Positions 4,888 to 10,121 of a stretch of DNA of 43,652 bases are shown here, piece by piece. Under the pieces are notes generated by a model. The model was not told where the DNA came from. It made no database searches and saw nothing but the letters and a program-made list of their open reading frames with translations. Numbering within the stretch: the first letter of the stretch is position 1; each line of letters begins with the position of its first letter. This DNA comes from a virus. Lineage: Duplodnaviria > Heunggongvirae > Uroviricota > Caudoviricetes. Location of the stretch: IMG/VR virus record IMGVR_UViG_2617270938_000005, positions 1-43,652 of that record; one strand, given 5' to 3'. Made by a program: the position numbers and the translations under genes.

Positions 4888-6080
4888 GAGACCACCAGAT
4901 TAATATTGCTGACGGCGCAGGATGCTGACTGGTCAAAGGCAATATCCACGTTTGCCGCGGCTACGCCACCGGCAGACGTCCCGATCAGCAACTCGGTAAT
5001 GTCGTAATACCTGGCATTACCACCACTGACAACACCAAGGTTAGCCGGTGAGTAAACGCGACTGAGAAGAACGCTGGCGCCGATTGCCAGTGAGTTAATG
5101 TAGGCAGATACAGCCGCCTTTATCTCTTCGCCAACCTGGGATGTGTAGCCCGTAAGAGGTTCGATAGTGATTTTGACGTAAATGGGTACATCGACCGGCC
5201 TTGAAAAACCTACCGGGTGAGGGTTTCCGTACTTATCAGGCACAACAATCACCGTACTACCGTAGGGTGTTACGCCCTGCCCTTTCACACCACGAATGCT
5301 GTTTGCAATGACCGTCGCATCACCACCTTCTACAATGGCGGCGATTGAGTGCGGAGGCAGGCCATTTGCATCAGTGGTATCTGTATCGTTCTCATACAGC
5401 TTGTGTCGCGTTACGCCGCTGATATTTGCTATCGCGCCATCTACCGCCTCAAACGGCGTCAGAGACGGTAAAGCAACGCTCTGTGATTGCCGGACACGCA
5501 ATTCAGCATTTGTTTCGGCAGCAACGCCTACCGTAGCCGCTTGCGGGTTAGTTACTGATACCCAACCACGTGTCGGGGTGTTTATCTTATTGACTGCCCC
5601 GGCAGGGGCCGCCACAGCGCCAGCAACAGAACACGTCGCTGTAGCAATAACCGTCCCATCAATACCAATTGTCACCTGAGCAGGAAGATTCCAGATGATG
5701 CCGTTGGCATCTTTCACAGAGCCGTTTGTGATTAACGTTCCGGCCTCACCTTCGATCAGCTCATCGACCGTAGAATTTGTCGCAGCCCGGCGAGCGATGC
5801 CGTTAATTTTGACGTTACTGGTTAATGCATCGTCCAGCGCCGTCGACGGAGAAAATGACCGGTAAACAGAAATGGCCGTGTTGTTGGCATCATGAATGGC
5901 CAGAGCCACCAGAGCGACCATCTGGCCGTCTTTGCTGTCCGGGTCGAGATAGGCATCACTGCCATAAATCTGCTGAAAATAGCTAATCAGGGTGCTGAGT
6001 ATCGTCTGATAATCAGGCGCACTTATCCCCTCAGCGGTTACCGTTGCCGATAAGCCGAGTGTGTCGAGGTCCAGAGCCAT
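4884..6080 (-). CDS. baseplate J-like protein
   Basis: 398-aa ORF in baseplate position; size and position as in Mu/P2-type baseplates. Confidence 0.55.
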   Translation of the reverse strand: MALDLDTLGLSATVTAEGISAPDYQTILSTLISYFQQIYGSDAYLDPDSKDGQMVALVALAIHDANNTAISVYRSFSPSTALDDALTSNVKINGIARRAATNSTVDELIEGEAGTLITNGSVKDANGIIWNLPAQVTIGIDGTVIATATCSVAGAVAAPAGAVNKINTPTRGWVSVTNPQAATVGVAAETNAELRVRQSQSVALPSLTPFEAVDGAIANISGVTRHKLYENDTDTTDANGLPPHSIAAIVEGGDATVIANSIRGVKGQGVTPYGSTVIVVPDKYGNPHPVGFSRPVDVPIYVKITIEPLTGYTSQVGEEIKAAVSAYINSLAIGASVLLSRVYSPANLGVVSGGNARYYDITELLIGTSAGGVAAANVDIAFDQSASCAVSNINLVVS

Positions 6081-6436
6081 TACGCCTCCGAAGTTACTGT
6101 GGTTGTCCCGTAGATGGTTTCCACCGTTGCTGTGAACGTTACACGGCGCGTGGTACCGTCAACGGTGGTGTTAAATGCAGTGATTGAGCTAACCCCCTGC
6201 GTTTCTAGGATCCGCTTACGGATAGCGAGGTTGTAGGTATCCGGCCTTTGCTTACCCAGAACGGACTGAATCCATGGCGTACCTTCTGTGGTGTCCAGAA
6301 ACCACTGACCGTACCAGAGCAGGAAGCGCGTTTTAATGGCCTGCGCTACAGCCTCGGGTGAGTTAACCAGCCAGGTATCATCGCCCTGACCGAAGGTGTA
6401 ATCCCCATCGTCATCTTCTCGACGGTATCGCATATC
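6080..6436 (-). CDS. baseplate protein (gpW/gp25-like)
   Basis: Small ORF between V-like and J-like genes; start taken at internal Met abutting upstream gene. Confidence 0.4.
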   Translation of the reverse strand, partial: DMRYRREDDDGDYTFGQGDDTWLVNSPEAVAQAIKTRFLLWYGQWFLDTTEGTPWIQSVLGKQRPDTYNLAIRKRILETQGVSSITAFNTTVDGTTRRVTFTATVETIYGTTTVTSEA

Positions 6437-7088
6437 ATCCTCCGAGTGGTGCTGTACTGCTGCCACCAGGCTCAACGCCACCATGCGTATGCTTATCAAC
6501 GATTGAGCCATCCACCAGTTGCAGGCGGCCGTCCGAGAGAATTTTAAGCCCGTTCAGGTTAAAACCTCCCGGCGCCGTGCCGTTGATAGCTCCACTGGCA
6601 GGATTAAGGCTCAACTTTGTTTCCCCGTCATCACTGCGCAGCTCTACCGCACTGGTGCTGATACCGCCGATTTTCTTCGCCTGCGACTGCGGGCCGACAA
6701 TGCAGAAGGCATCGGATAAATCATGCATGCGCTCGTCTACTGGCTCCTGAATACCTCCACTTTGCCACCAGAAATCAATACAGCGGTCTGCAAAGATAAC
6801 AAGGCATTCATCACCAGGCTTAACAGGAAAAGTCAGCGTACAGCCTCCGCCACGAGGGAAAACGACAGGAACGTCCACCAGCAGTGGGAGGTTTACCGAT
6901 ACCTGGGTGCCGGATTCGTCCTTCTCTGCGCCTTTAATGGCTGGCTGAACAACAGCGGTGACAGCATCCGGATCAAACGACTGGACGATGCCGGGCATAG
7001 AAACACGCAGCGCCGACATGACAGAGCCAGCAAGTCTTACATCGGCCTGTTCTTTGTTACCAAGTTGAGCGCTTAAAGAAACTGGCAT
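6435..7088 (-). CDS. baseplate assembly protein V-like (spike)
   Basis: 217-aa ORF, position and Gly-rich C-terminus consistent with gpV-type spike. Confidence 0.45.
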   Translation of the reverse strand: MPVSLSAQLGNKEQADVRLAGSVMSALRVSMPGIVQSFDPDAVTAVVQPAIKGAEKDESGTQVSVNLPLLVDVPVVFPRGGGCTLTFPVKPGDECLVIFADRCIDFWWQSGGIQEPVDERMHDLSDAFCIVGPQSQAKKIGGISTSAVELRSDDGETKLSLNPASGAINGTAPGGFNLNGLKILSDGRLQLVDGSIVDKHTHGGVEPGGSSTAPLGG

Positions 7089-7104
7089 TCATATGTCTCC
7101 AGAA

Positions 7105-7130
7105 AGTAAAAAACCCAGCCGAAGCTGGGT
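7105..7130 (-). terminator. rho-independent terminator after ant
   Basis: Hairpin ACCCAGC-CGAA-GCTGGGT with T-run on minus strand (plus A-run 7108-7113). Confidence 0.6.
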
Positions 7131-7148
7131 TGTCGCGTTGGTTATCTG

Positions 7149-8063
7149 TCAGTAGTTATGTACTGAAGGAGGTAATTCTTTATTCTTAAGTCTCATCCAT
7201 GCGGAAAGATTCGCTGGTCCGTCTGGCTCATTGATATCAACATCTCGTGTGTGATTGATTAAAACGTCTCTCGCCATTCCGATAACATACGAGAATTCAT
7301 GACCGTAGTCGTAGCATCTGCCGGAATAGTTCGATTGAATTTGTTTTAATGCCGGATACAGTTCGCGGAATAATGCCTGTGAACGGTTGGCATAATCCCA
7401 TAACCATACAAGGCTGTTTGCTTCTTTTGCAGAAAACTCGTTTGCTTTCTTCTCTTGTTTGCCAATGAACTCACCTTCAAGTGGAACTCGAGCTGCAAGT
7501 GACAGTGCTTCTGTAAACTGCTCCTCACTGATTTCTTTGTATGAACATCCAAAATGGGATTTCAGTGACGACCACATGGTGATCATCGCCTTCGCCTGTT
7601 TTTCTTTTGGCAGAGACTGACCGCGACTCATGACGAGTTGTTTAATAGCTTCCTGCTGTTCAGTGGTGATTTTACCAGGCAACGCCTTTTTAGCTTTCGG
7701 TGTATTTCCGTAAGACCCCGTTTTACGAATGGATGGCAAAACTTCAGCTGTTACCCATTTGCGGAATTTGTGCGGGACTGAACCTTTATTGACGGCATCA
7801 CGGCAGCGCAGAACCAATGTATACATACCTGATTCGCTCACAATGCTTAAATTCTGCTCACCACCAAGGGTGTAACTTAAAGTTACTCCCTTCTCATCGT
7901 CATCAAGTGCAGTAAGCGCCTTGCGTGAGTTAGTCAGGGCTAAAGCATCACAAACATCTTTTGCTACAAACCACGGCTCACCGCACTTGTTGATGACGCG
8001 GATTTCACTGTCGCCGAATTTGAAGATGGTGAAATCGTTTTGTGCCTTTGCTATACTTTTCAT
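7149..8063 (-). CDS. ant: antirepressor (Bro-N domain)
   Basis: N-terminal [16 protein letters not shown]...[11 protein letters not shown] matches Bro-N/antirepressor N-domain (cf. P22 Ant). Confidence 0.75.
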
Positions 8064-8095
8064 GTCAATATTTCCCGATCAGATTTGTTGATGTA

Positions 8096-8136
8096 GAAGC
8101 CTCGCCAGTTCCCGCTGTCGGGGCTTCGTTATTTTT
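8096..8136 (+). terminator. hairpin plus T-run in arc-ant spacer (possible sar-like antisense RNA terminator)
   Basis: GAAGCC...CCCG-CTGT-CGGG...GGCTTC hairpin followed by GTTATTTTT on plus strand; no plus-strand gene upstream. Confidence 0.35.
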
Positions 8137-8296
8137 AGAGAGCATTCCGCATTTTCTCCCGGTACTTCAACCACCAAGCTAATCCTTGAACCAACACTGA
8201 GTTTTCTGACATTCCCTCTTCCTCTGCAATGCGCTTAACTTCTTCCTTAAAGCGGTACGGGTAGCGAAGAGTTGTCTTTACTTCATTCTTTTCCAT
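8135..8296 (-). CDS. arc: Arc-like ribbon-helix-helix regulator
   Basis: 53-aa ORF (same length as P22 Arc) with AAGGAG RBS, immediately upstream of ant, divergent from mnt-like gene. Confidence 0.5.
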   Translation of the reverse strand: MEKNEVKTTLRYPYRFKEEVKRIAEEEGMSENSVLVQGLAWWLKYREKMRNAL

Positions 8297-8318
8297 GCTG
8301 TCTCCTTATTTCATAATG

Positions 8319-8333
8319 AAGGCAAATTGCCTT
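8319..8333. promoter_or_regulatory. 15-bp palindromic operator AAGGCAA-A-TTGCCTT in divergent arc/mnt promoter region
   Basis: Perfect inverted repeat between TTGACT (-35, minus strand) and the arc start. Confidence 0.5.
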
Positions 8334-8352
8334 TAGAGTCAATTTACCATGA

Positions 8353-8382
8353 TTGCACATGAAGTCAAGTTGCCTCTACAAT
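8353..8382 (+). promoter_or_regulatory. candidate sigma70 promoter for mnt-like gene
   Basis: TTGCAC - 18 nt - TACAAT, about 20 nt upstream of RBS GAGGTGA and ATG 8404. Confidence 0.45.
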
Positions 8383-8403
8383 GATTTTTATTTGAGGTGA
8401 GTT

Positions 8404-8727
8404 ATGTCAGAAAAATTTCCCAGCCAAATGCAAGACAAGTTCACCGTGAGGTTTCCTGACGGATTGCGCGATGCTATAGCTGAACGAGCTAAACGTAATG
8501 GCAGATCAATGAACTCAGAGATTGTGCAGATACTGGAAGATGCCTTGAATGCAGAAAATACTCTTGGGGAAATAGCAGATAAAATTAACAGCGTCTCGGT
8601 TCCGCTAAATGTTGATGCGCTAGTTCAACTTCAAGCCCAGGTTATCGCCATGCAAAAAGAAATACAGGAAAAGTTCAGAGAGCAGAACGAAAAGTTGAGA
8701 GAACTGCTAAACAAAAAACCCACCTGA
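8404..8727 (+). CDS. mnt: Mnt-like repressor (RHH)
   Basis: RNGRSMNSEIVQILEDAL closely matches P22 Mnt ANGRSMNSELLQIVQDAL. Confidence 0.7.
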   Translation: MSEKFPSQMQDKFTVRFPDGLRDAIAERAKRNGRSMNSEIVQILEDALNAENTLGEIADKINSVSVPLNVDALVQLQAQVIAMQKEIQEKFREQNEKLRELLNKKPT

Positions 8728-8734
8728 CGGTGGG
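8711..8734 (-). terminator. rho-independent terminator (mainly minus strand)
   Basis: CCCACC-TGAC-GGTGGG hairpin with T-run on minus strand (plus A-run 8713-8718), after the 8752 gene stop and overlapping mnt stop. Confidence 0.6.
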
Positions 8735-8751
8735 TTACGGAGAGGGCAAGA

Positions 8752-9087
8752 TCATTTAACCTTTCGGCAATCGTACGTCCAAAATTCCCGAGGCTCGTCC
8801 ATATTTTTGCGGATAACTTCAACGTTGAGGATCGCTTTTTTGTTTCGTTTGATGTAGTCCATACCTAACCAACGTCCAGTATTAGGATCAGGTAACATCC
8901 ATTGCATCATGACGTTATCGAAATCGTCTTTTTGTTTCAAAAAGGTCATTTTTTGTGTTTCTGGCTTTTGACCATTGATGTGCATGAGGCCATCATTGCC
9001 AGCATCAAAGCGGAATGGTCCGCACTGCGTTGCCGCCGAAACGGTTAACGGCAGGGCCAAGAATAAACAAAAAAATACTTTTTTCAC
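8752..9087 (-). CDS. small secreted protein (signal peptide), moron-like
   Basis: MKKVFFCLFLALPLTVSA-A signal peptide with AXA cleavage site; ATGA start/stop overlap with upstream tail gene. Confidence 0.5.
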   Translation of the reverse strand: MKKVFFCLFLALPLTVSAATQCGPFRFDAGNDGLMHINGQKPETQKMTFLKQKDDFDNVMMQWMLPDPNTGRWLGMDYIKRNKKAILNVEVIRKNMDEPREFWTYDCRKVK

Positions 9088-10121
9088 TCTACATCTCCGA
9101 CTTTGTCCAAAGTGCCTTTTGCCAATAGTTCTTTGCCACCTTTAGCCAGGCAAAGCAGGTCCATATACCACGCCTGCCCGCGAGTATCGCCAGTATAGTC
9201 AATGCTGCCGACAATGTAATCACCATCGGTATTGATTGCCGCCAGCTGCGACCCGGGAAGCCCATCGACATAGATGTTACCGTCTGTGGTACTTTCGCCT
9301 AAGATACCTGGTGACTGGCCAACCTGGTCATTACCGAGAGCCTGACGATATACAGAGGCCTGATCCAGCCTGATAAGCCCACCAAGCTTAATATTCGGGT
9401 TTATCAGACAGCGCACATTTACCCCGGCGCCCATCGTCTGCTGAGGCATACCGATCAGGCCCGTATTGGCGTTCAGTACAATCGCTTCCTGTATGTACTT
9501 ATCATCAGGAACAATATGCACCTGGTTGTTTTCGTACCACCAATTAGCCTTACATTGCCCTGCAAGGCTGTACATCAGGCGTCCAGTGTTCTGATAAATA
9601 GTGCGGCCGCGGGGGAATACAGTTGGACCAAAATCCGGCCTGCTTCCCTCTGTAATGCCATAAGGGCTAAGGGACTGCATACCCAAATCAAACAGGTCAG
9701 CATGCTTCCAGCCTGCCGATACTGTCGTTTTCACGCTGGCGTTGAGATGCCCCTCCCAGCCATCAATACACTGGATGAGCACCCAACTATCGGTGACGTT
9801 ATCTTTTCCGGTAACGGTAAAGCGAATATCACCGTTAAAGATGATCCCCACATTTTTATCAGGATAGTTACCACTGCTGTCTGCTGTGCCGTTATACCCG
9901 GCAATAGCCCTTACACGAGTAAACTCTTTACCCATGATCCGGTTTTGTGTCTCCGGCGACAGATTGTAGATTTTGAAGTTACCCACGAATCCGTTAAAGA
10001 TAGTCGCGGGCATCTTCTGGATATTAAACGTCACCTTAAAATCCGACAGCGAAACACCATCACCCTTGTCGTCAATAAGCTGCAGCTCAAAGTGCCGCAT
10101 CCAGTTCTGAGACATAATCAC
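9084..10121 (-). CDS. tail/baseplate hub protein (putative)
   Basis: 345-aa ORF in baseplate position downstream of tape measure region. Confidence 0.4.
   Translation of the reverse strand: MIMSQNWMRHFELQLIDDKGDGVSLSDFKVTFNIQKMPATIFNGFVGNFKIYNLSPETQNRIMGKEFTRVRAIAGYNGTADSSGNYPDKNVGIIFNGDIRFTVTGKDNVTDSWVLIQCIDGWEGHLNASVKTTVSAGWKHADLFDLGMQSLSPYGITEGSRPDFGPTVFPRGRTIYQNTGRLMYSLAGQCKANWWYENNQVHIVPDDKYIQEAIVLNANTGLIGMPQQTMGAGVNVRCLINPNIKLGGLIRLDQASVYRQALGNDQVGQSPGILGESTTDGNIYVDGLPGSQLAAINTDGDYIVGSIDYTGDTRGQAWYMDLLCLAKGGKELLAKGTLDKVGDVE

Follow-up and report, generated by a model that had tools for sequence, protein, structure and literature searches.

A predicted exported β-barrel protein encoded directly after the baseplate-hub gene of SEN34-like prophages: family, allele exchange and a possible role in phage exclusion

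Spackle (Sp, gp61.3) of phage T4 and Sim of phage P1 are soluble periplasmic superinfection-exclusion proteins, and Spackle is helical. Cor, Llp and Bor are bacterial lipoproteins processed by signal peptidase II, and Cor and Llp act through the receptor FhuA. Accessory genes of the moron type, such as that of the inner-membrane protein HK97 gp15, lie amid conserved tail genes. We describe here a protein labelled X, the product of the open reading frame (ORF) at positions 8752..9087 (minus strand) of a caudoviricete genome (IMG/VR record IMGVR_UViG_2617270938_000005); the stretch analysed, referred to below as the window, comprises positions 1 to 43 652 of that record. To judge from its sequence and those of its relatives, X is very probably exported and is probably an accessory rather than a structural protein. 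Its function may tentatively be sought, by analogy, in phage exclusion.

By the same analogy, X would find its nearest functional counterparts in T4 Spackle and P1 Sim, and also in morons from tail operons (HK97 gp15, for example). X resembles Spackle and Sim in its small size, its cleavable Sec signal and its (predicted) solubility in the periplasm; it would likewise act after adsorption, and its phage, too, has a contractile tail that bears a peptidoglycan hydrolase. With Spackle it also shares a cysteine pair. It differs from both in sequence and in being coupled to a late tail gene, whereas Spackle and Sim are encoded by early or lysogenic genes, and its predicted all-β barrel sets it apart from the helical Spackle; no similarity of X to Spackle was found in sequence or among the fold matches listed. 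The likeness to morons of the gp15 type lies in an accessory gene amid conserved tail genes, its low GC content, the intrinsic terminator that follows it, an envelope-targeted product and its dispensability for virion assembly in sister phages. Unlike such morons, X is present at a fixed position in ∼92% of its group and is coupled to the upstream structural gene, with no promoter of its own demonstrated, and it is predicted to be soluble in the periplasm rather than embedded in the inner membrane. Cor (phi80, N15 and T1) and Llp (T5) are also small exported proteins from tail-gene regions, but nearly all X family members are without a lipobox, the gene is not beside that of the receptor-binding protein, its alleles are not associated with the fibre region and there is no relation in sequence. 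Avidin, streptavidin and the calycin-type barrels, including MliC/PliC, share the ∼90-residue eight-stranded up-and-down barrel; X has no Pfam match to MliC, Inh or avidin, and neither a Pfam MliC match nor a close fold match, either of which would mark a lysozyme inhibitor of the MliC/PliC type, was found. X belongs to none of the Spackle, Sim and gp15 families by sequence or fold. It is a further exported accessory protein of prophage tail regions, already catalogued as phrog_3443; its make-up is unsurprising, yet the family is widespread and uncharacterized.

The X gene, its predicted product and its family

The features of the X gene are as follows.
8752..9087, minus strand: gene of X, precursor of a predicted exported small β-barrel (phrog_3443), 111 residues; GTG start at 9087..9085 and TGA stop at 8754..8752 (PHROG, homologues, dN/dS and AlphaFold2)
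9084..9098, minus strand: coupling junction; GGAG at 9098..9095, with the GTG start and the hub stop overlapping downstream of it as GTGA
9034..9087, minus strand: predicted Sec signal peptide, residues 1–18 (MKKVFFCLFLALPLTVSA), by a rule-based test; signal peptidase I (SPase I) would cut after VSA, or one or two residues later
8755..9033, minus strand: predicted mature periplasmic domain of ∼93 residues, from QCGPF to YDCRKVK (alignments A1 and A2; AlphaFold2 strands)

An earlier reading made without database searches (the sequence-only reading) had proposed this 111-residue ORF, and it is present with the translation quoted there. The ORF is judged to be far beyond chance because of the PHROG match (E = 7e-48), the 134 homologues, a dN/dS of ∼0.03 and the preserved signal-peptide architecture. 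The stop codon of the hub gene (TGA, 9086..9084) overlaps the start codon of X (GTG, 9087..9085) by 4 nt, and a Shine–Dalgarno sequence (GGAG, 9098..9095) is located 7 nt ahead of the start. The overlap had been described as ATGA; it is GTGA, the start codon being GTG. Among 72 non-redundant junctions, 63 have an X start that overlaps the hub stop and the other nine have it within +7 nt, with ATG (45), GTG (25) and TTG (2) as start codons. Public records often place the start of the X gene at an internal Met (giving products of 77, 92 or 100–104 residues) and so drop the signal peptide, as in L001 (3870..4103), L002 (4615..4893), L009 (5079..5312) and proteins P0004–P0030; in such genes the true start is often a GTG or TTG codon that overlaps the hub stop. 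This misannotation is a finding that is useful for annotation whatever X does.

The product begins with MKKVFFCLFLALPLTVSA-ATQCGPF, in which MKK, VFFCLFLALPLT and VSA-A correspond to the three regions of a Sec signal and agree with the rules for cleavage by SPase I. The rule-based test was applied to 103 aligned family members and asks for a basic n-region, an h-region of ∼7–20 residues and small residues at positions −3 and −1. A Lys or Arg is present among the first eight residues in 102 of the 103, an uncharged stretch of 9–21 residues in all of them, and small −3/−1 residues shortly ahead of the conserved Cys in 93. The mean column conservation in the family alignment is 0.39 for the signal region and 0.73 for the mature part. 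This combination, in which the architecture is kept while the sequence is poorly conserved, points to a cleaved Sec signal peptide and bears out the signal peptide of the sequence-only reading across the family. A lipobox ([LVI][ASTVI][GAS]C at the end of the signal peptide) is absent from X, as that reading had stated, and from 99 of the 103 members; a lipobox-like motif is found in four. X is accordingly placed, as a prediction, in the periplasm.

The precursor contains three cysteines, Cys7 within the signal peptide, Cys22 and Cys107, so that the two cysteines counted earlier are correct for the predicted mature protein but not for the precursor. In alignments A1 and A2 the N-terminal ∼20 residues are poorly conserved and are followed by a strongly conserved domain of ∼90 residues (QCGPF to YDCxKVK), with Cys22 and Cys107 invariant or nearly so. 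AlphaFold2, run with the family alignment, gives a confident model of eight β-strands with a predicted local distance difference test score (pLDDT) of 88.6 and a predicted template-modelling score (pTM) of 0.75. Cys22 is on the first strand (residues 19–22) and Cys107 on the last (residues 101–110) of the modelled barrel, and a disulfide between the two is likely to close it. A Foldseek search of the model against the PDB and BFVD gave nothing significant (E > 0.3), and the avidin-type matches share only 2–10% sequence identity, which is a likeness of topology alone. The modelled fold is therefore best described as a generic up-and-down barrel without an informative close relative.

Residues 2–111 of X align with positions 2–114 of the 115-position phrog_3443 profile (E = 7.4e-48). 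A homology search, which the sequence-only reading had recommended, recovered 134 relatives among 5.8 billion proteins, and every relative with a source name is from the Enterobacterales; the hosts include E. coli, Salmonella, Klebsiella, Citrobacter, Enterobacter, Kosakonia, Pantoea, Erwinia, Pectobacterium and Rahnella. A profile search of 1.84 billion cluster representatives returned just 55 clusters, and on these sequence searches the family is real but narrow. Two long profile matches, P0158 and P0174, are repetitive β-rich proteins and were judged to be spurious. A blastn search detects X in 78 of 5426 complete E. coli genomes, which is a lower bound. Prophages of E. coli, Salmonella, Klebsiella, Pantoea, Erwinia and Pectobacterium commonly carry phrog_3443, yet it has no Pfam entry and no solved or closely similar structure. 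The E. coli AF20 homologue in the slot between hub and spike is named ‘STY1065/STY2022 family phage-derived protein’ by NCBI, although neither it nor X matches any hidden Markov model of NCBIfam release 20.0; both this label and phrog_3443 are family names that carry no function.

A fixed position after the hub gene and exchange of alleles

The genes and signals that flank X are as follows.
9084..10121, minus strand: baseplate hub gene (Pfam E217_GP41, phrog_196); homologues suggest Met3, at position 10115, as the true start (alignment A3)
8709..8736, minus strand: intrinsic terminator directly after X, on the cargo side of the homology break; 8-bp stem within 8736..8717, then a T tract
7104..7131, minus strand: conserved intrinsic terminator ahead of the spike gene; hairpin 7131..7112, the ancestral end of the transcription unit from the tape-measure gene through hub to X
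6435..7088, minus strand: membrane-puncturing spike gene, first after the slot (Pfam N-terminal spike domain, E = 7.8e-45; GpV Apex motif)

X directly follows the hub gene in all but one of 111 loci, and it is present in 71 of 77 loci (∼92%) that were chosen by hub homology alone. The position persists at 28–33% identity in Salmonella phage SEN34, Klebsiella phage Mulock and E. coli vB_EcoM-683R1. From these comparisons, the order of the cluster is tape-measure protein (TMP), Dit, plug, hub and X, then optional cargo, a conserved terminator, and the spike with the remaining baseplate genes. In 77 of 80 non-redundant loci, a terminator-like hairpin precedes the spike start by no more than 90 nt; it is of the type AACCCGC-loop-GCGGGTT-TTTT, with loops that vary and stems that keep their pairing, and in three minimal loci it is directly 3′ of X. 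This conserved terminator just ahead of the spike gene indicates that X closes the TMP–Dit–plug–hub transcription unit. The terminator proposed earlier to follow X is also present (hairpin z = −3.5 versus shuffles). The sequence-only reading had put X at the end of the tail operon. This holds for the TMP–Dit–plug–hub transcription unit but not for the cluster, because the spike, sheath initiator and baseplate J genes continue downstream. Nor is X the occasional moron at the end of a tail module that had been envisaged, since its place after the hub is fixed in most of the group and falls in the middle of the tail and baseplate cluster. The pre-spike terminator splits the tail cluster into two transcription units.

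The alleles of X move between otherwise similar phages. There are phages in which TMP, Dit and plug are 100% and the hub 97–98% identical to those of the window, yet their X alleles are just 64–75% identical. In such X-swapped sister phages the nucleotide identity is ∼100% up to ∼9135, then 43–50% across the final 15 codons of the hub gene plus the N-terminal half of X, and 70–83% in the C-terminal half. The L032 group shows the reverse pattern, with 98–100% identity from 9179 to 8752 within a backbone of 55–80%. The mosaic breakpoints are sharp (∼9135–9180 on the hub side and 8749 on the cargo side), and from this pattern the last ∼15 hub codons (∼9135..9084) appear to travel with X. Over 283 locus pairs with hub and plug at least 95% identical, the median X identity is 0.69, and alleles that are only 56–75% identical occur among near-identical tails. 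Selection within alleles is strongly purifying, with a median dN/dS of 0.031 for X, compared with 0.036 for the hub. The GC content of X is 41–42%, compared with 51–55% for the flanking tail genes, and is below that of the hub in 78 of 83 alleles. By these sequence comparisons, X is an exchangeable allelic cassette, and its deviant composition, its own terminator and its position between conserved genes are those of a moron in the sense of Juhala and Hendrix.

In each of the six loci of the 77 that are without X, another exported protein is encoded directly after the hub. Five of them (L137, L147, L162, L164 and L174) have an unrelated protein of 80–84 residues, starting ∼10–30 nt past the hub end, with a signal peptide, repeated CTTxNTGTTYC motifs (four Cys) and no Pfam match. 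The sixth (L172, 5048..5749) has a 233-residue lipoprotein, also with no Pfam match. The position directly after the hub thus seems, from the genes found there, to favour an exported protein. Fusion variants also occur, in which the X domain is the C-terminus of a lipoprotein of ∼290 residues directly after the hub (lipobox LSGC, with Thr at +2). In the fusions P0127 and P0137 (L195, 6001..6876; L196, 6001..6876), a lipobox (LSGC or LVSC) is followed by an unknown domain of ∼190 residues and then by X. In Pantoea, a diverged standalone paralogue of X (L027, 9992..10342; L112–L116) is located in a prophage remnant between fliE and yedD. The remnant has no tail genes; the neighbours of X are O-antigen-modification genes of the gtrA/gtrB and Acyl_transf_3 types, a CI-like repressor gene and dinI. 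O-antigen-modification genes are typical lysogen-protective cargo.

Survival of X after the loss of tail genes and its exchange between identical tails argue that it is not a part of the tail. A baseplate component would be indispensable and would co-vary with the tail; six of the 77 loci do without X, and divergent alleles are found with hub and plug proteins at least 95% identical. The earlier assignment of X as non-structural is upheld by the same sister phages, by the allele swaps and by the tail-less Pantoea copy.

Possible functions of X

In the model that we propose, translation of X is coupled to that of the upstream hub gene; the Sec pathway would then export the product, SPase I would cut it, and in the periplasm it would fold to a small eight-stranded β-barrel, probably stapled by the Cys22–Cys107 disulfide. 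X is the constant first occupant of an accessory slot at the 3′ end of the TMP–Dit–plug–hub operon of SEN34-like temperate myophages of Enterobacterales and is exchanged among phages as a discrete allelic cassette. Expressed, presumably, in lysogens as well, it may target the envelope of the cell, infected or lysogenic, and there stop infection by other phages at a periplasmic step after adsorption, a form of superinfection exclusion whose topology would resemble that of T4 Spackle or P1 Sim. The proposal as a whole is tentative. Exclusion is favoured as the function on account of the export of X, its location in a hotspot of accessory and envelope genes, its retention with lysogen-protective genes and a cassette exchange that is typical of specificity determinants. 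If true, a periplasmic block would add a new protein family to the few soluble periplasmic exclusion factors and would help to explain failures of phage therapy on lysogenic clinical strains.

Co-resident prophages bear on how specific such a block could be. Pantoea dispersa S68 carries two (L022 and L026) with Dit 100% and hub and spike 98% identical, whose X alleles share only 73% identity, with most of the differences in the N-terminal half. The genome of Kosakonia oryziphila REICA_142 also has a pair of prophages with this type of tail (L018 and L021), and the NCBI family name implies two copies in S. Typhi (STY1065 and STY2022). We consider it rather doubtful, though conceivable, that X is the founder of a soluble periplasmic exclusion family with allele-specific targets. 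A conserved barrel face (C-terminal half) might then dock on a conserved element of incoming tails or of the envelope while a hypervariable N-terminal half sets the specificity; shuffled alleles might let prophages with identical tails differ in the relatives that they exclude, and hence co-reside; and the slot between hub and spike might be a dedicated island for envelope-acting anti-phage genes.

Several observations weigh against exclusion as the function of X. The tight coupling to the hub gene implies late lytic expression, and no lysogenic promoter for X can be demonstrated in the window beyond one weak σ70-like match (9220..9192, 9/12), which is located within an invariant coding motif of the hub; the standalone Pantoea copies must have a promoter of their own. 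The co-residence of prophages with near-identical tails means that self-exclusion is either not absolute or allele-specific. The identity of X correlates best with that of the hub (ρ = 0.76), which, like the near-constant presence of X in the group, would also fit a conserved role in the lytic cycle. X has no match in Pfam, NCBIfam, PADLOC (including its defence models) or the PDB, and permissive scans of 30 members gave none either; furthermore, no paper or experiment on the family was found in the literature searched.

A rival reading gives X a role in the lytic cycle. X, made late with the tail proteins, could act in the periplasm of the dying cell, where its task might be to hold back a host enzyme or the SLT lytic transglycosylase that the tail carries, to tune the timing of lysis like T4 RI, or to keep progeny from being lost to infected cells and debris. 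The overlap with the hub gene in 63 of 72 junctions and the presence of X in ∼92% of phages with this tail are consistent with such a helper, as is the C-terminal SLT domain of the tape-measure protein, and in its size, export and cysteine pair X resembles periplasmic enzyme inhibitors (T4 Spackle, PliC/MliC and T4 RI). X has, however, no sequence similarity to MliC/PliC, Ivy, Spackle or RI, and none of these is among the fold matches listed; moreover, its alleles differ where the TMP/SLT proteins are 100% identical, the Pantoea copy persists with no tail or lysis genes nearby, and six sister phages manage without X. A lytic helper is an unlikely explanation. The Pantoea copy, kept in a decayed prophage beside O-antigen-modification genes, and the low GC content typical of a moron would agree with a lysogenic-conversion or fitness factor unrelated to phages, for example a calycin-like periplasmic binder of a lipid, cofactor or peptidoglycan fragment that alters envelope physiology. 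This too we regard as improbable: the fold match is at the level of topology only (2–10% identity for the avidin-type matches, Foldseek E > 0.3), the hosts, among them plant-associated Pantoea and Erwinia as well as E. coli, Salmonella and Klebsiella, have no obvious niche factor in common, and in more than 100 loci the gene keeps its position and is coupled to a tail gene, which points to a phage-related role.

X might also be a component of the virion or of its assembly, with an uncleaved N-terminal membrane helix, either riding in the hub/spike complex or catalysing hub assembly at the membrane. It always adjoins, and is coupled with, the hub gene, its identity tracks that of the hub best, and the two are under equally strong purifying selection. 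Nearly all members nevertheless have a basic n-region, an h-region of 9–21 residues and an AxA-type c-region whose sequence is as unconstrained as that of a cleaved signal, and the invariant cysteine pair suits an oxidizing compartment. Furthermore, alleles only 56–75% identical serve tails at least 95% identical, sister phages carry unrelated exported proteins or a lipoprotein in place of X, lipoprotein fusions exist and so does a tail-less copy. A structural role is very unlikely, and the least likely of the lytic-cycle, fitness and structural alternatives. The baseplate proteins described for the cryo-EM structure of Pseudomonas phage E217 (PMC10329688) do not include gp42, whose gene lies between those of hub gp41 and tip gp43. 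The corresponding pbunavirus gene between hub and tip (ORF40 of phage SN, equivalent to E217 gp42; L117, 7818..8351) was considered as an analogue of X and rejected, as it encodes 177 residues with no signal peptide and is unrelated.

A blocker of the Cor/Llp type would attach, from the periplasmic side, to the outer-membrane receptor that its own phage uses and so prevent adsorption or triggering. X is a small exported protein from a tail region, as these are, and the rare lipoprotein fusions would be tethered to the outer membrane. The absence of a lipobox from 99 of 103 members and of similarity to any known family argue against it, as do the position of the gene next to the hub, 4–6 kb from the fibre genes, and the correlation of X identity with fibre-region similarity (Spearman ρ = 0.05 over 53 loci), which is the lowest of the seven tail genes tested. 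This explanation is most improbable, and the sequence-only reading had rightly kept X apart from Cor on the basis of its sequence. If X does exclude other phages, masking of the phage's own receptor is less likely than the post-adsorption block proposed above.

Cargo between X and the spike gene and the surrounding tail genes

The insert between X and the spike gene in the window contains the following features.
7132..8748, strand not assigned: variable cargo slot, here with a P22 immI-like cassette (Pfam Arc, Bro-N and P22_AR_C; PHROG Ant)
8404..8727, plus strand: mnt-like gene with an Arc domain (Pfam Arc), divergent from the arc-like gene
8135..8296, minus strand: arc-like gene (Pfam Arc)
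7149..8063, minus strand: ant antirepressor gene (Pfam Bro-N and P22_AR_C; PHROG Ant)

Homology to sister phages ends at 8749 and restarts at 7131. The immI-like cassette has a GC content of 41–46%, and its mnt-like segment (8435..8735) is 93.7% identical to Stx-converting phages. The order X–mnt–arc–ant recalls the sieA–mnt–arc–ant order of P22. Over 106 loci the distance from X to the spike gene is 65–2972 nt, with a median of 898 nt. Among the cargo of these loci are immI cassettes, a Fic/Doc gene preceded by a small gene, a 188-residue HExxH protein and TPR-like proteins of ∼250–270 residues paired with proteins of ∼130 residues. Additionally, there are further signal-peptide proteins, lipoproteins, transmembrane-anchored proteins and a zinc-ribbon membrane protein with a tRNA_anti-like domain. 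Examples of such diverse cargo are L060, L090, L028 and L078, and most of the cargo has no family assignment. The layout of hub, X, cargo, terminator and spike is a predictable hotspot of accessory genes in this phage group, regardless of what X does.

The window as a whole represents a temperate phage with a contractile tail of the SEN34/Mulock type, and its remainder is a lambdoid early region. Upstream of the hub gene are those of the plug (Pam3_gp18), a Dit-like protein and a 666-residue tape-measure protein with a C-terminal SLT domain. The genes beyond the 1.6-kb insert are those of the spike, the sheath initiator and baseplate J. The mechanically called 143-residue ORF at 6080..6511 (minus strand) overlaps the spike gene by 77 nt, and Sheath_initiator homologues (117 residues) place its start at the ATG at 6433.

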